The notes under the pieces are model-generated. The model was not told the DNA's origin. It made no database searches and saw nothing but the letters and a program-made list of their open reading frames with translations. The position numbers were made by a program, and so were the translations under genes. DNA of 64,000 nt from a virus: IMG/VR virus record IMGVR_UViG_3300045988_056900; one strand, written 5' to 3'. Positions 8,009 to 62,734 of this stretch are shown here, in pieces. Positions within the stretch are counted from its first letter, which is position 1, and each line of letters begins with the position of its first letter.

Positions 8009-8066
8009 AGTCTGTGGAGGGAATCGAACCCTCATTTAACAGTTTTTCCATTTAAACTACACAGAC
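8009..8066 (-). ncRNA. tRNA-like module A lacking an anticodon arm (58 nt)
   Basis: Minus strand reads GTCTGTG-TA-GTTT-AAATGGAA-AAAC-TGTTAAAT-GAGGG-TTCGATT-CCCTC-CACAGAC-T. It has a perfect 7-bp acceptor stem, a D-arm with GG, and a canonical T-arm. Only 8 nt occupy the place of the anticodon arm. Confidence 0.55.
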
Positions 8067-18084: not shown

Positions 18085-18353
18085 TGATATTCGTATTCTT
18101 TAATTTTGTTATTCAATAGCTCCCATTTTTCCTTGTCGATATCAGTTGCTTCTACTAAGTAGATGATATCACAAGATGCTCTAAATACACCACGAATGTA
18201 GTTCATTCCCTCTTTATAATGATATTTGTTCTTATAAATTCTGGGAACATTTGCATGTAGACGAGTTATTAACTCTGTCTTCATTTTCAGTTCTGTTGCA
18301 GCTTTCTCCCATGATTCTGGTAAGTTCTGCCTAATAAAGTTCATTAATCCCAT
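18075..18353 (-). CDS. hypothetical protein (TAG-terminated)
   Basis: 92-aa ORF. The stop codon is TAG at 18075-18077. Confidence 0.6.
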   Translation of the reverse strand: MGLMNFIRQNLPESWEKAATELKMKTELITRLHANVPRIYKNKYHYKEGMNYIRGVFRASCDIIYLVEATDIDKEKWELLNNKIKEYEYQCA

Positions 18354-18389
18354 TTCAAATTAATTTATTGATTAAACTTAATTTAATTG

Positions 18390-18449
18390 TGGCATTAGAG
18401 GGAATCGAACCCTCTAACAGCTCTTACGTCTGATCTAGCCTGATATGCC
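18390..18449 (-). ncRNA. tRNA-like module C (60 nt) lacking a canonical anticodon arm
   Basis: Minus strand reads GGCATAT-CA-GGCT-(14 nt)-AGCT-GTTA-GAGGG-TTCGATT-CCCTC-TAATGCC-A. The T-arm is identical to module A. The acceptor has 5 bp plus 2 mismatches. Confidence 0.4.
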
Positions 18450-18485
18450 TTACCACTTAGTTTTATATTTATTAAAATACTACGA

Positions 18486-18707
18486 GGCGACTGTCACTAT
18501 TTCTAGCGCTAAAATCTATTTCACAACCCCATCATTAGTAACAGTTTCTCTTTAAATAAAGAGTTGTTAACCAGGATACTGTATGCTCCCCTGGGGATAT
18601 CTCACGCTGCTAAGCGTGTATAATCCATTACATAACTTGTATTGCCAGTTATCTGCTTATTGACCTATTCTACTTCACATTGTCGCAGTCAAATGCCTAG
18701 ATGCCCC
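18486..18707 (-). ncRNA. tmRNA-like coding piece: 5' acceptor strand, D-loop-like motif and tag reading frame ending LAA-stop
   Basis: The minus strand from 18707 reads GGGGCAT-CTAGGCATTTGAC-TGCGAC. Positions 18646-18602 read GGC AAT ACA AGT TAT GTA ATG GAT TAT ACA CGC TTA GCA GCG TGA, that is GNTSYVMDYTRLAA*. ACAGTC at 18494-18489 can pair with GACTGT of the upstream acceptor piece. The 3' boundary is a guess. Confidence 0.4.
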
Positions 18708-18863
18708 ATTTAAAGTAGTACTCTTACAAAATTTAACTTATAGTTTGAGTACTACTCCCGATCTTCCTATCGCTGTTAATGAAAAAACTCTTAGAGAGAA
18801 ATCGAAAATTAGCGTAAGATTTCTATACGGGCCTCTTATTATTCTTGCTTATTCCATTTTTTG

Positions 18864-18920
18864 TGGAGCATGAGGGAGTCGAACCCTCGTCCTAACGACT
18901 GATTCATAGACCTAACAGTC
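18864..18920 (-). ncRNA. tmRNA-like acceptor piece: hairpin, GGAC, T-arm, 3' acceptor strand and discriminator A
   Basis: Minus strand reads GACTG-(14 nt)-CAGTC-GTTA-GGAC-GAGGG-TTCGACT-CCCTC-ATGCTCC-A, followed by CAA. ATGCTCC is complementary to GGGGCAT at 18707-18701, with G3:U70. Confidence 0.4.
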
Positions 18921-19551
18921 AATGAGTTTATAAGATTAATTGAAGTATAACTCGCGTACAGAATTAAGCCATTCTTCCTGCTTTATTATTTAACACAGTT
19001 CACAGCACTCTCTACAGGTGAGCCTTCGTTATGTTATACAATATCCCTGCTATTTTTACAATTAATCTTATATTGTGACTAGGTAGGCGACCAAACCTAC
19101 CTAGCCTATGGTCTTTTACGATATTTAAAGTATTCTCATACTATTAATGCCTTGATAACCTGTCTTGGAAGTATAGAATACTTTTCAGCTTCTATACGGC
19201 ATGATGTCTAGCATCGCACTATTCCAAAAATGCCGACTTGATATCATAAGAATGCTATTGCATAATATACTCAAAGAGTATAGAATCTGTATTTATATAT
19301 TGCGCAATTTATATATACATCCTCATGATCTTAGGCACATGATCAGTGGCACGTTGTCATAATGTCCTACTCTGGCATCGGTTGTATTACTACACCTTAC
19401 ACTTGTTGTATGCATGTCAATTCATGCATGAGCTGCATCTTCTGGTACTTAGCACATAAAATGTCATCACCACCTATTAGCTACTTTCTCTAGTTAGGTT
19501 ATATAGTCAGTATTTCTACTGCTAAAACACTATACCTGGACTATGCGCGGA

Positions 19552-20016
19552 TTAAAGGGACAACAGTTGTCCATCCCATCTCCAATCATAACGGGCTTTC
19601 GGGTACTGGTTAAGCAATTTGTTTTGCTGTTCCTGATACCATTTGTCAACTTCACGAAGAAGATTGTTAGCCTCTTTGTAGAGCTCTTTACAATCCTTCA
19701 GGTAGTCTTCAATAGTGATGCCGCCGTTACGCAGTTTATCATCTTTTTCAGAGAACTTCTTCAAGTAATTGAGTTTGACCTCTTTTTCCTTGTCGGTCTT
19801 TTTCATACTCAAATAAGTTGCAAGACGAGTATACTCACTCTTCAAAGTTACGTCAATATGACGTTCCGTGAGCTCCTCTTTACGCTGTTTTGCAATCTTT
19901 TCAGCAGCAGCTTTTGCAACATCTTCTGTTACAGTTGAGCCATTGTTGATTACTTCTTCAATGTTCTCTGCTGATACTTTTGTAATATCAGCTACTTTTG
20001 CTTCTTCTTTTGTCAT
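19552..20016 (-). CDS. hypothetical protein
   Basis: 154-aa ORF preceded by the conserved leader AAACATTATCAAAAA-ATG. Confidence 0.75.
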   Translation of the reverse strand: MTKEEAKVADITKVSAENIEEVINNGSTVTEDVAKAAAEKIAKQRKEELTERHIDVTLKSEYTRLATYLSMKKTDKEKEVKLNYLKKFSEKDDKLRNGGITIEDYLKDCKELYKEANNLLREVDKWYQEQQNKLLNQYPKARYDWRWDGQLLSL

Positions 20017-20330: not shown

Positions 20331-20539
20331 ATTTTTGATAATTTGGTTTTAGAATTAAAAAAAGAACTGTTCTGTATATTCCTATCTCTTATTCTACAGA
20401 TAACCCCTATCCTTCTCTCCCTTTATCTGTAGATTTACAGATTGCCGTTGAATAGCCATTACATAGTAATATGTATTAGGGTTTTGGTATATTTACAGTT
20501 CTTTCGGGTTGATTGGAATCCACCATACTAACAATTTAA

Positions 20540-21986: not shown

Positions 21987-22464
21987 TTTTACATAGGCTT
22001 TAAAATTGTTAGTTAATAAATATGATGACGTCTGTATACAGCACTATATACAGAATAATTTACCGCAGTGCTACGGAGATTTGAGACTAATACTATAAAG
22101 CAATAGCGCTCTATTGCACATCTGTTATTAAAGAAATCATTTCCACATATTACTATGTTTAATTTAAACCCTCACATGTTTTAGGATTACTCCAGAGTAC
22201 AAGCAGAAAAGGCTGTCAAACCTAATCTTATCACTCACCTGATTTTAACGTCCGCACGATCGTAGTATTTGCAATTATCAGTACTAATTAGAGTAATTGC
22301 CACCCTTCTTCTCCCGCTTAAAAATACTACTTACGCCCCACAGGCTTGTCATCTTCTGAAGACTAGTCTATTCTCACGAACAAACTAGTTGTGTCGAAAT
22401 TTTTAAACCATTTCTATGCAAAATGCTTCAAAAAACTGTAATAACTTGTTTTAATTATTACTCT

Positions 22465-24107: not shown

Positions 24108-24921
24108 ATATTATAATGTTTTAATTAGTAATCAAATAGAAATAAAGTAAGCGCATTATATCCGCCCTTATACATATGAATGCTATGCTATTCTCTTACT
24201 TTATAATTTGAGACTTCTTTATTGGTTACTTCTTGCTCAAGGAAGACCTCAACTATTTTATTTTTCTCTAGTTCCGCATTGTAATAGTTAACAGATGCGG
24301 CAACTTCATACTTAAAATGATACTTATTGTTCAGTTAGTATCAGACTGTCAAGCTCCGTACACCTTATTTCCGGATGAAACATTTTCTCTTTGCTTGCTT
24401 AGATTAGTTACTTTAAAGAGTTGCACATCACAGCGAACCTAACTGTGACCTCTTACCACGTGGATTATTTAACTATTAAATATCAATAATTTACTGTGCA
24501 TATAAGTTAAAGATAAATAATAATTAATTACTTTGACTCTGCATTGTCCACCGACTTGTCACGGCCTTCATTGGTTGCATTAAAGTAATAATATATGTGA
24601 AATCACACTATCCTCACAGACCGTGTAATTGTTAGTTTAATTTTTCAGAAAATCTCTTGCATTTTACACCTAAAACTCTATGAGCAGCAACTCACATCTA
24701 TTAGATAGTTTGCGCGCGTTTTATAATAGAGAAACCGGTGCCCTCAATGTCTTGGGAAGTTATTGAGTTTTTTGTTTATCAAATTATATTAGTTGTTATT
24801 CCTTTTCTTTTAAATAATAGTATATAATTATACATATTATGATTATTCCTCCTGCAAATTGTATCTGTGACCATTCCATATTAATGAAAGTTTCTATTTT
24901 AATTATGTGTTGTTATTGACA

Positions 24922-31890: not shown

Positions 31891-31993
31891 GGGAGAGTGG
31901 CGGAATGGTATACGGCAGTAGATTGACGGAAGCGCCCTAAAGTCGTCGTTAACAAAGCTCTTGGGTTTGAAAGTTCGAATCTTTCCTCTCCCG
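31891..31993 (+). ncRNA. 103-nt non-canonical tRNA-like element
   Basis: Acceptor GGGAGAG/CTCTCCC. tRNA-Leu-like GTGGCGGAATGGTATAC. Perfect T-arm GAAAG-TTCGAAT-CTTTC. The 69-nt interior has no canonical 5-bp/7-nt anticodon arm in any register I tried. Confidence 0.35.
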
Positions 31994-32001
31994 CTTAATA
32001 T

Positions 32002-32076
32002 TGCCCTATGGTGTAATGGTTAGCACAGGAGGCTCTAACCCTCTTAGTCTGCGTTCGAGTCGTAGTAGGGCTACCA
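32002..32076 (+). tRNA. amber suppressor tRNA, anticodon CTA (reads TAG), tRNA-Gln-like
   Basis: Cloverleaf TGCCCTA-TG-GTGT-AATGGTTA-GCAC-A-GGAGG-CTCTAAC-CCTCT-TAGT-CTGCG-TTCGAGT-CGTAG-TAGGGCT-A-CCA. The anticodon is at 32035-32037. CCA is encoded. Confidence 0.85.
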
Positions 32077-54400: not shown

Positions 54401-54794
54401 GACTCAGAAGCACTTATGTACATTTGAGTTAGTAGATAGGATAACTGCTCCTGTATACATTACTAATCAAGCTACAGGTTATAAACACACTTCTAATAAG
54501 GAGTTGCCATCCCCTTATACTCCTTGGGATCACTACTTCTTCCCAGCTACTATTACTCAAACTAGTCAAACAGATATTACAGCTAAAGTAAATGCTGGGC
54601 AAAGATATCCTTTCTATACTATTTATAAAGTAACAGCTAGTAATATTCAGTGCATTACTAAAAAGATTAATTACTTATTTACTTCTGCTGGTAAATATAA
54701 TGTTAATATTCCTAGTAGCAGTAATCCTCCTGCAGCAATTGGTGGAAACGGAGAAATTAATAGTGGTAATGACATAATTGTTATAACAAAATGA
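51414..54794 (+). CDS. 1,126-aa tail-module protein with a lamin-tail-like domain and a calcineurin-type metallophosphoesterase domain, 12 in-frame TAG codons
   Basis: One frame, checked by hand. LTD-like NFVELSNLTDADINLNGLSL[TAG]YSSGG. Phosphoesterase motifs VQVSDQ[TAG]G, TGDMTQNG, GNND, GNVHFMAINSE and GGHKHTYA. Confidence 0.7.
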
Positions 54795-57700
54795 ATTTAA
54801 GAAAGTATAATGAAACTACCGGCACTTGGGATATAATCTCTTCAGGTAATGCTTCTGGTATCATGGTTACAGACCCTCACTTTTTAGATGAGGGTCAAAC
54901 CTTTAAGTCTGTTAATCAAGTATTAGTAGACATGGATGACAAAGTAGAAGAGACTAAACGTAATCTTAGTTGGGTAGTATTAAACGGTACTATTGGTGGC
55001 GGAGGAGGCGGTGGTGGAACCACAGCGTCTATAAAGCTAACTGATGGTAGTATTGTTACTAATGAAGGTGTAAACTATTTGTATTCAACATAGACCAAAC
55101 TGACACTACACTATCTTATTAGTTCTACTAAACCGAACGAGAAGTATAACATATCTGTATCACTAGATGGTAATACTATAATCAGTAAACAGATTGGTTA
55201 TTCTTCTGTACAAGGTACATTAGATATTCCTAATATTGCGTAGTTCTCAAATTCAGCCAGTCATAGTATAGTAGTTACTGCTGAGAATGCAGAAGGTATA
55301 TCTGTTACACCGTATCTACTTACAGTAGTAGAATCTTCTATTAGCCTAGAATCTTCAGTAACATCTGTAACTGCAACTATTGGATTACCATATAATATCA
55401 CGTATAAGATAACAAATAAAGTGTTAGGTTCAGAGACTTCTCTTATTGTTACTAATACTACTAATGGTATATCTAAGAGTTATTCTGTAGGTAAGTTTAC
55501 TTCTGTAGAACCTAAACTATTAGATGTTAACTTCTTTGATCTATTTGATGGTGCTACTCCAACTGCCGGTAGTTCTTATACTATATCTGCTTAGGCTACT
55601 ACATCAGTAGATACTCAGGTAATCAATTCTGATGTGATAACTAACAAAGTAGTAGTAGAAGATGGTTAGACACTAGTAGTACTAGTAGATGGAGTAACCA
55701 CACAAGCAGACATAGAATCTGGAATTGAACCTACTGAGTTTGCACAATCTGGTAATATATCATTCTCATTTACTCCTTATCTAGCAGGAGTATCTATTAT
55801 ATACTATGCTCTAAGAATACAGAGAGGTACCATAATAAATGATATAGGTAACTTTGATGCGGATAGCAGTAATTTCAACTCTAATAGTTATGTGATTAGA
55901 GGTAAAGCTCAAGTGTTTAGTTGGTCTATTCCATAGGAAGAAATGTACCTAGGAGACTATAAAATTACTTTAAGATGCTGGTCTGAGAAAGGTAGTCCTA
56001 TAACAGATACTATAATCAGATGTAATGTAATCGCTGCAGATCAAAGTTTGATTCCTACATAGAATCCAAGCAATACTATGTACGCATAGTGGAATATAAA
56101 ACAAGCTACATTTCCTCAAGAAACATCTGCTAAAATATGGTCTAGCGTTGTACCTAACTTTATTATGCCAGGATAGCAAGAAGAACAATCTGTAACTACT
56201 AATCTTAATGTATATGATACTAATGGTATACTATCGGGCTTCTTGAATGAGAATGGATAGAGTAAATTAAGATTGGCTGGAGAAGCATATGGTGTAGTTG
56301 ACCTATAGCCATTCGCTAGTTCTATAGCAGATAATGCAAACTGGTCTAGATTAGGTTTTACTATATCTACTACGTTTAAAACAGATTTACATCCGTACAA
56401 TGACAGAACTGTATTCTTTATAGGAGACTATTCATCAGACAATAGCTTTCAAGAAGGTATTATAGTAAGTCTAGAAGATGTAATATGGAAGTACACAGAT
56501 GGAGCTATTAAGGAAAGTATATCATGTAAGATACAACAAAACACTGTAAATACTCTTGATTTTGTAGTAGACCAAAGTAATAAAGAAGTTAAGATATTTG
56601 TTAATGGTGTATTGAATGTAGCTAGAGAGATAAAAGATAATTTCACTTGGAGTACATCAAGTAAGATATATTTAGGATGTACTTACTAGAATGGTAAACC
56701 TAGTAACTTCAGCGATGTAGAGTTCTATGAAATGAACTTGTTTAGATCTCCTCTTAATGATAAACAGATAGTTATTAATGCACTTAATGCTAGAGTAAGA
56801 GCTACATTAACTAGTACAGGTTCTGTAGATTTTACAGAGTATAACAACTTAAAGTTAAAGAACTTCTTTAGTATAACAGAGAATAGTAGTTCTTCAACTC
56901 TTTGGGATGACTCTACTGGTACATATGCTAAATTGAATTTTAACAGTCTTATTGGTGATGTCAATAGAAAACCACCTCTTCCAGTAGTATTAATAAACTG
57001 TTCCAATTCTGGGTTTACTAAAGCTGTGTATGAAGCTATCGGTCCTAATACTACTATGTACAATGGTTGTACATTCAGTTATTTCGATCCAGATTCATCA
57101 AGTGGTTCAGCTGTATCTACTACAGAAATGTCTATACAGATACAGGGTACATCATCTACTGGTTATAGAAGTAAGAACTTAGAGATAGCATTTAACAAAG
57201 TAATTACTGACGATGAAGGTAAGACTATTGGACCAGAGTTATTCCAACCTAAGTCTACATGGATGCCAGAAAATCAGTTTACTTTGAAAGCTGACGTAGT
57301 AGACAGTGCTCATGCCAATAACGCTTCTATAGGTAAGTGGATTAATGATAATGCAGATGTACTGTTTGATAAGACACCACCTATGTAGGAACTTGAAGCT
57401 AGACGTCCTGTAGACTCTATTACTCCAAGTTAGACTCATACTGATGTAACTATCAAGCATACACTAGAAGGTTTCCCTGTAATCTTACTTATCTAGTTCG
57501 ATGGTACTAGTACTCAAGAGATGTTGGGTATCTACTCATTTAACTTAGGTCGTGCAGCATACTATAATATGGGTATGAAGTTCTTGAAGAACTTTACTAC
57601 TAAGATTAAGAATGTAACAGGTGAGTACATTGATCAACCACTTCCAGCATTCGTAACTAAGTATGAAGCATATAAAGTAAATGAGAACTTTGGTAGTATC

Positions 57701-60700
57701 AATCAATAGTAGATATACTCATACGAGTTTGGTGATAACGCGAATATCATCGAAACAGCTGAAGGTATACAACCTACTGCATTGTTCATGCAGGATGACT
57801 TAACTGTTATCCAACACGTAGGAGAGTTCAAGTTTAATGGTGCTACTTAGGATGCTACAGCTGTAACCGATAACAATATATGGCAGAGACTGTAGTTACT
57901 GTTTACTACACTAGCCGGTATGACTGGTGAAGAGATAAGTAAATACAGATGGAATACTATAACTAAAGGATATGAAAAAACAGGAGCTACGTATCCTGCA
58001 CAGCAATCCTGGTCTGCTCTTGCCGATGATCTTACTTTAAGACTAAGTATTAGAAATGCATATTCATACTTTATGATATGTGTAGTATTCGGTCTTGTGG
58101 ACTCATTAGGAAAGAATATGGTGTTAAGATCATGGAATGTAGGAGGATCCACTACAGATTAGAATATGAATAAGTGGTACCCATGTTTCTATGATATGGA
58201 TACTGCAAATGGAGTAAGTAATACTGGTGAAGAAAATGTTGCTAAGACGGCATATATAGACGGTTTCAGCAATGCAGATACTACTACGGGTGTGAACTCT
58301 CTTATAATCAAATAGAACGATCCTAATAACGGGTATGACGAATACTCAAGTAGATTGTGGGATGTTCTAAGAGATAGTAGATTCATAAGTACTGGAGTAT
58401 ATTCAGGAAGTGATTATAATGGATTATGGGATCTATGGAGAACCAATAGTTCATTATTAACCAGTTCTTCTATGTTCGTTGAAAACTACTTTAGTGCTTA
58501 GACAAAGAACTGTGGAGAACTATTATACAACTATGACTACCGAGTTAAGTATCTTACGAAATATTAGAAAGATGAAGATAGCCCTGCGTCATATGCTAAT
58601 GTGGAATTCTTGCATGGTACACGTAATGACTTTGTAAGAGATTGGCTAAAGAAGAGATTGACATTTATGGATGGAGTATTCTTATTTGCTAATAATAATA
58701 TTATCTATCCGTACAATGAAAAAGGTTCTTTCAAGTGTGGTGGTGCTTAGAACAACAACTCTAAGTTAACTATTAAGATGAATAGTCCTGCTATACTTAC
58801 TGTGAATATAGGTAATGCAGCAGGTAGTGAAACTAGATATTACATAGAAGAGAATGTGGATACAGATATATATCTACCATCTTTATCTTCATTTAATACT
58901 CAGATTACAGTAAACAATATGTCTGAGATAAGTAATATGAAAGGACTGGACGAGATTAGATTCCAAGGTTTCATGACATCAATGTCGCTACCTAGTATGT
59001 CTGAAATAGATGTATAGAATACTAGTACCTTATCATCTAATCCTATAGACTTTGCTACTATATTCGTTAAGAGATAGGATGGCAAGAGTGTTTCAGATAT
59101 TAGACATATTAATTTGTCTAACACTAGTTTTTGGTCAGGAAACAGTGGTGTTAACTCATTTCCAGTAGACATATAGAACTATAACAAACTAAAGACAATA
59201 GATATATCAAATGGATGTGTAACTTCACTGGCACTGCCTAATGCCGCATTATCTACTCTTACTTTAACAAATTCTGCTATAGAAAGGGTAACTCTAGCTG
59301 ACCAACCTTTTATTAGTAAAATTGATTTTACAGGGTGTAATAAACTACAATCCGTAGAAGTAAGTAATTGTAACTAGATAATAGAATTAGACTTACGTAA
59401 TTTGAGTGACTTAACTAGTATCAATATTATTGGTTGTGCTAAGCTCGAAAGAATTTATGCACCTAACTGTAATAAGTTAGCCACATTTAATGTGTCAAAT
59501 GCTAACGCACTCAAGTCTGTAACCCTATCTAATTGTAATAATGCTAACTTAAGTATTAGTTTAGTAGGAGCTCCTAATCTTGAAGAATTGAATTTAGATA
59601 ATACAAATACTACCGATGTAATTGAATTTGCACCAGGATTCAATAAATTGAAAACATTAAATATTTCTTCAAGTAACATTAATGCATTTCAATTTGGAAA
59701 TGATCCTGTAGCTACTACATCTACAGGTGAAAGAATACTAGATCTTAGTCCATTTACTTTTACTAATCTGTATATGCACTATAATAGTTCTAAGTATGTA
59801 AAATTTAAGAATAGTAAAACAAATCCTTTCGCAGTTAATAGTTCTACTTTTAATAACTGTTCTAGTTTAACTAGAGTATTCGGACACATAAAACTAACAT
59901 CAGGAAGTGTATTCAATACTTGCCCTAACTTCTTTATACACGATGTACTAGAAGACGTGACTATTAAACCAACTAGAGGGCAATGGTACGGTCCAGATAC
60001 AGATACTACAGAAGGTTAGGAATAGTGGGATAACAATCAAGGATTAGAGACTAATATATCCATAGGTACTACTAATTTAAGTAGCTGCTTTGTAGGAACT
60101 AAAGTAAACATATATGATGTGTATTATATATTGAATATGTGTGATGATGTCGAAAACATTGTTTCTATATTTCATTCTTGTTCAAATGTAATTACAGATT
60201 TTAGTAATCCTCTAAGTAGAGACACATTTAAATATTGTGGTAACGTTACTAATGCTTAGCACGCCTTCTATGCTACTAGGCTAACAGGTCCTATGTATAG
60301 TCCTACTCATACTGGAGATACAATTACTGAATACAATGGTTTATTAAGCCCTTTGAAGAAGTTAGTATCCTGCAGTAGTATGTTCAAAACTGCTGCTGGC
60401 AATTTCTACATAGATGATTTATTCTTTGCATAGATAGGTGCTAATCAATATTTACAATTGGCGCATCTGTCTAGCATGTTCAATTACGGTGGTAGTAATA
60501 TAATATTTGTAGATAACTGTGATGAAACTTTAACTTCAGCAGAAGTAGCAGAGGGACGAAGAGCATATGCTAGAGCATCTAAATTATTAAGAGATCTTCC
60601 CAATCTAGATACTATAGCTAATATGTTCAATGGTTGTTGGTTTAATTTCGATACAGAAAGTACCGACGATAGTGTAATATATAGTCCGTTATTCGCTTAT

Positions 60701-62734
60701 AATAGCAAACTAAAAGTAGTTAGTTGGAGTTTCAGAAATATCAAAGCTAAAGGTTCATTGATTAATCTATTTGGTGGTAATTCAGTATTTGATAGTAGTA
60801 ATTTATTCTCTAGGCAAATAACTAAATTATTAGGATGTTTCTATATAACTTCTAATGATGGAGACAAGGTGTATTTCCCTATACACAATAGTATGTTTAG
60901 ATAGATTAAACTTACTTTACAATACATAGGTAATACAGAAGATACTAATCAGATTCCAGATTAGGCTGCTACATGTTTTCATGGTGCTGGTATAAACAGA
61001 GTATTTGTTAGAGAGTCTGATGAAACATATCCTTATGATGTGTTTAAAGGAGTTGTCAATCTAATTGCGTGCCCATGTTTCTTTGCTAACATAACTATTC
61101 CTAATTCCAATGGTGTAGTATATGAACTACCAGGAAACATTTTCTAGGACTGTTCAAATCTAGTACAGATAACAGGTTGTTTTAGAAATCAATCAGTAAA
61201 GTATAAGTTAACAGGTAAGGGATTTACTAATTGTAAACTTACAAATGTTGCGTATGCATTCTATGAAGATTCAAACAGTTATACAAAAGAAGGAGGAGTT
61301 CCATATGGTTTGTTTTATATGGAAAGAGATGTAGTAAGATCTTCTACTGGTTGGAGTCATGCAGATGCACTTAGACTAGGAATAACTGAAAACTTTGGTA
61401 TAACTGAAGAAGGAGAACATGATCCTGGTGCAGTACTTCCACAAACCATTGATTACAGTGAATCAATAAAAGCTGTTAGAAGTAGTATAACTGATATGCG
61501 GTATGTATTAGCAAATTTCTCTAGCCCTAATGCGGAAGGATACATCAGAAAGCAAGTAGAATTAAATACTGTTGAAGACGCAGGAGATTTGATAATAACT
61601 AATGAGAATTACAATGTTTCAGAATTCATAGTAAATGCTGCGTATGACCCGAGAGATCAAATACCTAATCCAGTGTATGATCCTAATAATCCTGGATCTA
61701 CTCCAGAATATATTGATAATCCCAATAAGGATATACATAGAGTAATAAAGAATCCAAACTATAGTCCTTACAAGAAAATATGGAATATTGATTACTATGA
61801 TGGAGTATATGGTCTAGGGGATCTGATATAGAACAGTACTTTGTATCAGAATATACAATCTGGTGTTATAACAGATATTGATCCTAATATACCATCAGAA
61901 TTCTTCAATGAAGACGATATGCGATATCCTCTTAGTCCTGCTGGATAGAATAGATTAGACAGTATGAACTATATAGTTCCATCAGATCTATTTAAATATT
62001 GCGTCAACAATACTAATACTAACATATCAAATGCTCTTACAAGTAGTGGTAGAAAAACTGATCATGAAGTACAAAGATATAATTATGGTATATATGGTAG
62101 AATACCAAATAGAATATTCAAAACTCTTACTAACATATCCAGTTTAACTAATGTGTTTGCGTATTGTTATTGCATTAATCCGTATACTTGGAATGATGAT
62201 AGTAATAATGGACAGATGTTTCCTTCTGATATGTTATCTAACAATACTGCATTAAAAAGCGTTTCAGGACTATTCCGTGGAATATATATACCTGCAAAAG
62301 TAGTTATACCTTCTACTTTACTTAGTAAGAACTTGGCTCTTACAGATATATCTTATTTATTCTATGATGCTACCTTCCAAGGCTCTGCTGATGATGTTCA
62401 ACAGTTAAGTGATACTACATTCTAGTATAATTATATATTACAGAATATATCATATGCATTAGCTAGTACCAATTCTACTGGAGGATGGATGGGACAAGGA
62501 CCGAAGAAGATAGGATCAAATCTGTTTACTCAATCTAAACATAAGAATCTTACGAAGATAACAGGTTTATTCTATGGAGATACTTCTACAACAGGTTCTG
62601 TGCCAGAATTCTGGACATGGCTAAATAATCTTACTAATACGAATAAACAAAATGTATTTGCTTACATGAGTAAGAGTCTTATTACTAATAGTGGTAGCAT
62701 ACCAGAACAATGGGCAACTAATATGAGGGATTAA
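54791..62734 (+). CDS. 2,647-aa multidomain tail protein (LamG-like, CotH-like, leucine-rich repeats), about 37 in-frame TAG codons
   Basis: Ten track ORFs share one frame (position mod 3 = 2). Every gap was translated by hand and contains TAG but no TAA or TGA. CotH-like KWYPCFYDMDTANG. LRR run NLSDLTSINIIGCAKLERIYAPNCNKLATFNVSNANALKSVTLSNCNN. Confidence 0.8.

Follow-up and report, generated by a model that had tools for sequence, protein, structure and literature searches.

Two-piece transfer-messenger RNAs (tmRNAs), encoded by circularly permuted ssrA genes, are known from Alphaproteobacteria, some Betaproteobacteria, Cyanobacteria and mitochondria. Among phages, the mycobacteriophage Bxz1 group and Bacillus phage G have one-piece tmRNAs, mycobacteriophage DS6A has the tRNA-like domain (TLD) only, and the marine Melnitz-like phages and pelagimyophages have two-piece forms (PMC9004378, PMC4131195). 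Here we describe a locus on the minus strand of a 64,000-nucleotide stretch of viral DNA (IMG/VR record IMGVR_UViG_3300045988_056900; the whole stretch is called the window below). The region at positions 18486-18920 is likely, on comparative sequence grounds, to be a functional circularly permuted (two-piece) tmRNA gene of a crAss-like phage. The carrier phage belongs to the family Suoliviridae, the nearest record being cr60_1 of the genus Buchavirus, and the region is 94% identical to the crAss-like Suoliviridae phages cr60_1, cr113_1 and cr109_1. Similarly to the published phage tmRNAs, two-piece forms of which have already been reported, the ssrA gene is borne by the phage without a phage smpB (PMC9004378, PMC4131195). 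However, the published two-piece phage tmRNAs come mostly from marine phages and fall within the lineage of the host, alphaproteobacterial or cyanobacterial (PMC9004378), whereas here the carriers are gut crAss-like phages, whose Bacteroidota hosts have a one-piece tmRNA.

Gene order and covariation of the two pieces

The core call, a circularly permuted ssrA with the 3′ acceptor/T-arm piece located 5′ of the 5′ acceptor strand and the tag frame, and with a G3:U70 pair, is supported by two independent detectors and strong covariation. It had been made from the sequence alone, and its elements are present as claimed and far beyond chance: a tmRNA-type 3′ end, GGAC-GAGGG-TTCGACT-CCCTC-ATGCTCC-A at 18892-18864; a 5′ strand GGGGCAT starting at 18707, 156 nt past A18864, which pairs with ATGCTCC through G3:U70 and co-varies in relatives; and a tag frame ending with TGA, which encodes GNTSYVMDYTRLAA. 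The ORF-free block described around them is also real, as the approximately 1.2 kb (18354-19551) between the open reading frames (ORFs) ending at 18353 and starting at 19552 contain no minus-strand ORF of 50 codons. The gene order in these phages is acceptor piece, variable intervening segment and coding piece, which is the permuted order of alpha-proteobacteria and cyanobacteria proposed in the sequence-only reading. Scans of 18300-19600 for sigma-70 promoters and intrinsic terminators gave nothing above the shuffle background.

The first detector, ARAGORN, reports a single permuted tmRNA at 18957-18511 (minus strand) with the same tag; when the 64-kb window was shuffled 150 times with dinucleotides preserved, it called no tmRNA. 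A call by ARAGORN does not suffice as proof, since in a Bacteroidales metagenome-assembled genome the program wrongly reports a permuted gene, having linked the true 3′ end of a one-piece tmRNA with unrelated sequence further downstream. The second detector is the Rfam model RF04321 (tmRNA_permuted), which in E-value mode matches 18923-18602 end to end (40.3 bits, E = 1.6e-6).

For the comparative analysis, related loci were retrieved from IMG/VR with a 20-base pattern of the coding piece, which is present at no fewer than 120 loci (at least 120), mostly on gut-virome contigs of approximately 95-104 kb. An initial virome pattern, ATAGGTN{10,14}TAANTGGCAA, was too loose and was replaced, as it gave mostly chance matches. 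From 127 pattern matches, 96 have a T-arm and a 3′ acceptor strand upstream that pairs with the 5′ strand just before the pattern; 92 loci were used for the tag and flanks, and 210 related loci for homology. The paired acceptor strands read GGGGCAT/ATGCTCC (43 loci), GGGGCTG/CAGCTCC (23 loci), GGGGCTA/TAGCTCC (8 loci), GGGGATG/CATCTCC (6 loci), GGGGTAT/ATACTCC (4 loci) and, at one locus each, GGGCGTG/CACGTCC, GGGGTTG/CAACTCC and GGGGAAT/ATTCTCC, and G3:U70 is kept among the top-ranked acceptor stems. A few low-count matches without the final TCC (e.g., GGGGCTA/TGGTCTC, 3 loci) were excluded from later analysis.

The covariation check across relatives suggested by the sequence-only reading was positive. 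In 36 diverse sequences 92.3% of the cells are paired and 19 of the 31 pairs have changes on both sides, the third acceptor pair being U:G in all 36. The covariation score is 0.423, compared with 0.173 in shuffles (0/500 reach 0.423) and at most 0.10 after displacement of the partners by 1-3 columns. Five helices emerged when all column pairs were scanned without bias, namely the acceptor stem, the T-arm and the three P2 segments (P2a, P2b and P2c). The P2 segments together hold 10 doubly changed pairs, counted on a MAFFT alignment in which P2a is mis-registered in the cr10-like group; P2a variants read in relatives are ATTG/CAAT, CTATTAG/CTAGTAG and CTTATGA/TCATAAG. The two pieces can therefore be joined through the 7-bp acceptor stem with G3:U70 and three P2 segments, all of which show compensatory changes. 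The D-loop analogue has an invariant TTTGA across the aligned relatives, a motif that formed part of the retrieval pattern.

Two other inter-piece helices had been proposed, and these are not supported. The complements GACTG/CAGTC exist, but they are 70% paired with covariation equal to that of shuffles (36 sequences), and P2a overlaps them in another register. For ACAGTC/GACTGT, the first strand (18494-18489) lies in a segment without a homologue in the 210 loci and is predicted to form a local 10-bp hairpin, ACTGTTACTA/TAGTGACAGT. Both are at chance level, and the supported inter-piece helices are P2a, P2b and P2c.

A one-piece gene would need a 3′ acceptor strand downstream of the coding piece. 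As stated in the sequence-only reading, no complementary strand is found there; the T-arm modules downstream have their 5′ partner strands close by. With the downstream T-arm at 18415-18391 as the supposed 3′ end, GGGGCAT would face the acceptor strand ATGCC, to which it is not complementary, and the one-piece reading fails in relatives as well, where each downstream module has a 5′ strand of its own to pair with. As the upstream 3′ strand co-varies with the downstream 5′ strand, only a permuted gene accounts for the pattern. The same observation bears on the idea that ARAGORN hit the locus by chance, or that a host tmRNA gene left a 3′ fragment there, for example as the attachment site of an integrating element. 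False permuted ARAGORN calls do occur, and phages integrating into ssrA carry 3′ fragments of it (PMC9004378). However, no call was made in the shuffles, covariation between the 3′ strand and a downstream 5′ strand is unexpected for a fragment or a chance hit, and the gene is syntenic across three phage subfamilies. This explanation can hardly be credited and is effectively refuted by the strand-pair and helix covariation.

The gene is not without precedent in databases, as RefSeq already annotates it in sister phages: the records of cr60_1, cr52_1, cr114_1, cr115_1, cr125_1 and cr10_1 have a "transfer-messenger RNA, SsrA" feature at the syntenic place. These phages span three subfamilies, and in all six ARAGORN calls a permuted tmRNA with a related tag. 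The statement that no permuted tmRNA was known in a crAss-like phage or in Bacteroidota thus holds for the literature, where no paper on either was found and where a search for tmRNA with crAss or Crassvirales gave only methods-section mentions of ARAGORN, but not for the sequence records. The 2025 tmRNA database lists 48 "permuted" genes under Bacteroidota genomes, its supplementary tables having no phage breakdown (PMC11915505), and these might be the phage genes described here. The features of the window gene are collected in Table 1.

Table 1. Features of the putative permuted tmRNA gene and their positions in the window
Feature	Position	Strand	Basis
Acceptor piece (P2 3′-side strands, T-arm, 3′ acceptor strand, discriminator A18864)	18864-18923	-	ARAGORN; RF04321 and RF00023 alignments; conserved in 92 loci; 99% identical to cr60_1
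P2c strand ATTGAC, pairs with GTCAAT 18664-18659	18918-18923	-	89% paired; 2 pairs doubly changed; ATATGAC/GTCATAT variant preserves the helix
P2b strand TCTAT, pairs with GTAGA 18673-18669	18906-18910	-	100% paired; compensatory changes in 4/5 pairs
P2a strand GTCGT 18899-18895, bulged T18894, AG 18893-18892; pairs with CT 18688-18687 and GCGAC 18686-18682	18892-18899	-	4 pairs doubly changed
T-arm GAGGG-TTCGACT-CCCTC	18872-18888	-	100% paired; 5/5 pairs co-vary
Acceptor stem 3′ strand ATGCTCC (U70 = T18867)	18865-18871	-	Pairs with 18707-18701; 98% paired; U:G 36/36; 4 stem pairs co-vary
Intervening segment, 156 nt, presumed removed from precursor	18708-18863	-	15 to 603 nt among relatives between conserved flanks
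Acceptor stem 5′ strand GGGGCAT (G3 = G18705)	18701-18707	-	Sequence; covariation
D-loop analogue (CTAGGCATTTGA), then P2a 5′-side strand CT-GCGAC	18682-18700	-	Rfam alignment
P2b strand GTAGA, conserved internal loop ATAGG, P2c strand GTCAAT	18659-18673	-	Unbiased scan; alignment; covariation count
Tag frame: resume codon GGC, encodes GNTSYVMDYTRLAA, stop TGA	18602-18646	-	ARAGORN; frame kept in 92 loci
Window-specific 3′ domain of coding piece, three predicted hairpins	18453-18601	-	Fold z = -1.9
tRNA-like element: 5-bp acceptor stem GGCAT/ATGCC, one central arm, T-arm AGAGGG-TTCGATT-CCCTCT, discriminator A then C	18390-18449	-	Sequence and fold

Variation is also seen just 5′ of the acceptor piece. 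In the cr10-like group (L006, L037, L057 and similar loci) a 6-bp hairpin located approximately 20 nt 5′ of the acceptor piece stands in place of the ATTGAC/GTCAAT P2c helix, with co-varying stems (ACGATA/TATCGT, ATATCA/TGATAT, ACAATA/TATTGT) and the constant loop TAAGAACTG. In the window a 9-bp hairpin, CTAGGTAGG-TTTGGTCG-CCTACCTAG, is found at 19079-19104 (minus strand); the acceptor piece of cr60_1 and others begins directly after this hairpin, which may be a processing or termination signal of an upstream RNA.

Relation to bacterial tmRNAs

Compared with the two-piece tmRNAs of alpha-, beta- and cyanobacterial lineages (RF01849, RF01850, RF01851), the phage gene has the same gene order, the same holding of the two RNAs by the acceptor stem and P2, the G3:U70 pair, a tag frame and the end-to-end match to RF04321. 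It differs in having no pseudoknot 1, one small post-tag pseudoknot (in relatives) and a tRNA or tRNA-like element after the coding piece. Furthermore, the lineage models fail on it and its signatures are Bacteroidota-like. All 4227 Rfam families were scanned, and among the hits listed, which leave out some overlapping lower-scoring ones of the same clan, the three lineage models gave no meaningful match, just a partial one to beta_tmRNA (28.5 bits, cut-off 84) in cr10_1 (L006). The one-piece model RF00023 matches only the 3′ part of the window gene, with 28.6 bits (cut-off 47).

The motif GGGGN5TGGTTTTGACAGCGGG was present in at least 120 genome contigs, all of Bacteroidota among the matches listed, and in these ARAGORN finds one-piece tmRNAs with the tags GENNYALAA and GETNYALAA, and GNNNF/YALAA in Bacteroidaceae. 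The phage genes share several features with these one-piece tmRNAs (RF00023). The 5′ motif TGGTTTTGACAGCG is found in many phage relatives, the window itself reading GGCATTTGACTGCG; P2a has the same architecture, with CAG-CGnn pairing with nnCG-T-TTG; the 3′ end GTTTGGACGAGGGTTCGACTCCCTCCAGCTCCAC is matched by cr10_1 at 33 of 34 positions; the GGC resume codon stands in the context ATAACTGGC; and the tags start with GN. CCA is not encoded in either: in the window the base after discriminator A18864 is C18863, and a discriminator followed by C and then variable bases is found in 92/92 phage genes and likewise in most of the 108 Bacteroidota tmRNA genes retrieved. On the other hand, the phage gene is permuted and lacks pseudoknots 2-4, and its tag has an additional V[TM]DYT[RQ]-like core. 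The distance from the 5′ end to the resume codon is 97 nt in Bacteroidaceae and 61 nt in the phages, the gap corresponding to pseudoknot 1 (approximately 33 nt).

The likeness to Bacteroides tmRNA pointed out in the sequence-only reading therefore appears real, via the 5′ motif, 3′ end and resume context shared by relatives, and appears to reflect ancestry. Most likely the phage family descends from a one-piece Bacteroidota tmRNA, with loss in the phages of pseudoknot 1 and of most of the region holding pseudoknots 2-4. Together with the lack of a meaningful lineage-model match, the Bacteroidota signatures suggest a separate permutation event in or near these phages. It is possible, though still somewhat doubtful, that the Suoliviridae crAss-like phages hold a fourth, independently permuted tmRNA lineage derived from the one-piece tmRNA of the host: a minimal form without pseudoknot 1, matured via flanking tRNA-like elements, with sub-forms in which a group I intron splits the T-loop or the spacer bears a homing-endonuclease gene, and with a phage-specific degradation tag added in infected cells.

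Spacer, tag frame and 3′ domain

The variation of the intervening segment in length and contents, which include a tRNA and an endonuclease gene, fits a spacer. In cr114_1 (L003) a tRNA-His (63 bits) lies at 2088-2160 within this segment, between the tmRNA pieces. In cr113_1 (L210, NC_055896.1) a tmRNA at 2015-2800 has an unusual T-arm, GGGGC-TATCGTAT-GCCCC, and its intervening segment of 601 nt holds an "endonuclease" gene on the reverse strand; because of this segment of approximately 600 nt with its endonuclease gene, both ARAGORN and RefSeq miss the tmRNA. Several virome contigs share such a segment with the reverse-strand endonuclease gene. At two further loci, L137 (2200-2975) and L140 (4080-4915), a group I intron (RF00028, 69 and 77 bits) carrying a reverse-strand Cys-rich ORF splits the T-loop of the acceptor piece. 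The 5′ exon ends with ..GAGGGTTCGAT or ..GAGGGTTCGACT, and the 3′ exon restarts with (T)CCCTC and the acceptor strand. These relatives resemble the known intron-form tmRNA genes, which have a group I intron in the T-loop, but they are permuted and intron-split at once, whereas the T-arm of the window gene is intact. The combination of permutation and intron is not listed as a form in the 2025 database paper (PMC11915505). Annotation pipelines overlook the gene if the spacer is long or the T-loop bears an intron, as in cr113_1.

The tag frame of the window reads GGC AAT ACA AGT TAT GTA ATG GAT TAT ACA CGC TTA GCA GCG TGA. Across the 92 loci it stays open over 13, 14 or 15 codons and the indels are solely of whole codons; the tags start with GGC, have the core [FY][VI][TM][DN]Y[TS] and end with a final Ala followed by TAA or TGA. 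Third-position changes are seen at conserved residues (GAT/GAC, TAT/TAC, ACA/ACT/ACG).

Several observations weigh against a functional tmRNA. First, the RF04321 score of the window is below the curated (gathering) cut-off of 47 bits, and at curated cut-offs Rfam makes no tmRNA call at the locus, so that the model check called for in the sequence-only reading gave a match in E-value mode only. Since RF04321 is a merged tRNA-domain model built from alpha-, beta- and cyanobacterial sequences (PMC11915505), a sub-threshold score is unsurprising for an outside lineage; the cut-off is exceeded in cr114_1 (50.9 bits) and cr10_1 (49.6 bits). Second, a crude pairwise count of tag codons gives 495 synonymous and 1532 non-synonymous differences and does not by itself demonstrate purifying selection; it is indecisive alone because several positions vary freely. 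Third, just 12 nt (AAGCAGATAACT) separate P2c from GGC, none of which takes part in a co-varying helix in the column-pair scan of the alignment. This distance leaves no room for pseudoknot 1, which nearly all bacterial tmRNAs have between P2 and the resume codon, although it is not strictly defining. Fourth, no SmpB homologue was found in the 64-kb window (tblastn with an E. coli SmpB query, nothing below E = 1), so the RNA would depend on host SmpB. Finally, the post-ORF pseudoknot of the relatives is absent from the window copy, which could therefore be impaired.

Some of these points would be expected if the RNA were a genuine tmRNA homologue acting mainly as a decoy, with a tRNA-like domain that titrates host SmpB, alanyl-tRNA synthetase (AlaRS) or EF-Tu and blunts host trans-translation. 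Mycobacteriophage DS6A has a TLD-only RNA for which such a role has been suggested, and inhibition of tmRNA by a similar molecule is reported (PMC4131195, PMC11915505); the absence of pseudoknot 1 and most other pseudoknots, as well as of a detectable SmpB in the window, is in line with it. However, 92/92 loci preserve the tag frame with whole-codon indels only, along with the context of the resume codon and the C-terminal Ala, none of which a pure decoy needs, and the P2 helices linking the tRNA-like domain to the coding part co-vary. We therefore regard a decoy as improbable and favor a tmRNA whose tag is translated.

The last of the opposing points concerns the 3′ domain. Relatives carry a compact pseudoknot-like element, AACGGCTAAGCTAATGTCGTAAAAAGCTGG, 10-25 nt past the stop codon (stems ACGGC/GTCGT and AGCT/AGCT, with partial covariation), in place of which the window has a 145-nt segment (18597-18453) without a homologue among the 210 related loci. 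The window copy could accordingly be a damaged allele of a functional family, in which recombination replaced the 3′ pseudoknot domain and the RNA became unstable, misprocessed or inactive. A second window-specific insert, at 18924-19071 just 5′ of the acceptor piece, points the same way; it parts the acceptor piece from the upstream hairpin, and neither it nor 18453-18597 is found in the 94-99% identical cr60_1, cr113_1 and cr109_1. By this comparison the locus is a mosaic. Nevertheless, identity to cr60_1 is 99% over 18923-18598, a span that takes in the acceptor piece, the tRNA-like domain, the intervening segment and the tag frame. In other relatives, too, the stretch from the stop codon to the tRNA-like element holds inserts, which differ from one another, suggesting that the region tolerates change. 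The replacement segment is predicted to fold into stable hairpins, and the downstream tRNA-like element is retained. Damage to this copy is thus a poorly favored explanation, and a putatively active gene with a variable 3′ domain is preferred.

The downstream tRNA-like element probably marks the 3′ end of the coding piece. Neither ARAGORN nor Rfam calls the element at 18390-18449 a tRNA. A tRNA or reduced tRNA-like element directly 3′ of the coding piece is present in the relatives read, ranging from a 42-nt acceptor/T-arm minihelix to a full tRNA, and a strict automated rule (7-nt acceptor stem) finds it in 56/92 loci. Its acceptor stem co-varies (AGTAAGT/ACTTACT, AGTGAGA/CCTCACT, GATAGGA/TCCTATC).

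Proposed maturation, genomic neighborhood and meaning

The proposed mechanism follows the two-piece tmRNAs of Caulobacter and tRNA maturation. A single precursor would be transcribed from the minus strand, and RNase P would cleave 5′ of G18707 and 5′ of the tRNA-like element near 18449, the second cut releasing the coding piece at its 3′ end. Trimming after A18864 would fall to a 3′ tRNA-processing activity, and the CCA-adding enzyme would supply CCA. The annealed two-piece RNA could then be charged with alanine by host AlaRS and bound by host SmpB, enter stalled ribosomes and resume translation on GGC, so that (A)GNTSYVMDYTRLAA would be appended, the ribosome freed and the product marked for degradation. 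Our best guess of the benefit for the phage is extra rescue capacity and a phage-specific degron during infection, when truncated mRNAs abound.

The tmRNA gene belongs to a cluster rich in non-coding RNA. Upstream of it, on the minus strand, Rfam finds above cut-offs RAGATH-20 (19327-19428), RAGATH-9 (20360-20516), a Hatchet self-cleaving ribozyme (22237-22363) and RAGATH-7 (24318-24529), and RAGATH and Hatchet RNAs flank the tmRNA in relatives too. This setting, together with the tRNAs and tRNA-like elements that flank or interrupt the gene in relatives, would suit a processing cassette, in which the tRNA-like modules serve solely as RNase P/Z punctuation freeing the neighboring RAGATH RNAs and ribozymes and have no ribosomal role. 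But punctuation needs no invariant G3:U70, no acceptor stem pairing across up to 600 nt, no three co-varying P2 helices and no conserved tag frame, which makes this reading very improbable in comparison with a tmRNA gene.

Elsewhere in the window, an amber-suppressor tRNA is located at 32002-32076 (plus strand; anticodon CTA, labelled Pyl by ARAGORN). The plus-strand late genes (approximately 32-64 kb) are full of in-frame TAG codons, the frame at 54773-62734 having 37 in 2653 codons, while the minus-strand region with the tmRNA uses the standard code. TAG recoding is known for Delta-group crAss-like phages (PMC7886860), and the pattern of the window fits it. With TAG read-through, more ribosomes could stall at the ends of mRNAs. 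A link between the tmRNA and recoding was rejected: the same permuted tmRNA is found in cr10_1, which uses the standard code and lacks a suppressor tRNA, and the tmRNA is thus not dependent on recoding. Rfam lists two further tRNAs, at 31891-31993 (plus strand) and 8009-8066 (minus strand), neither reported by ARAGORN; the former covers 103 nt for a 71-position model and may therefore carry an insertion.

Ribosome rescue by tmRNA is a core part of bacterial quality control, and phage copies of the gene hint at its tuning in infection. If active, the RNA of these phages would be a naturally minimal tmRNA, consisting of pieces of approximately 60 nt and 150-260 nt without pseudoknot 1, and would probe which parts of tmRNA are needed. 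It would also be a further independent example of gene permutation in tmRNA. Furthermore, as the tag is unlike that of the host, an active gene would offer a mass-spectrometry handle on the proteins that are rescued and degraded under infection by the most abundant phages of the human gut.

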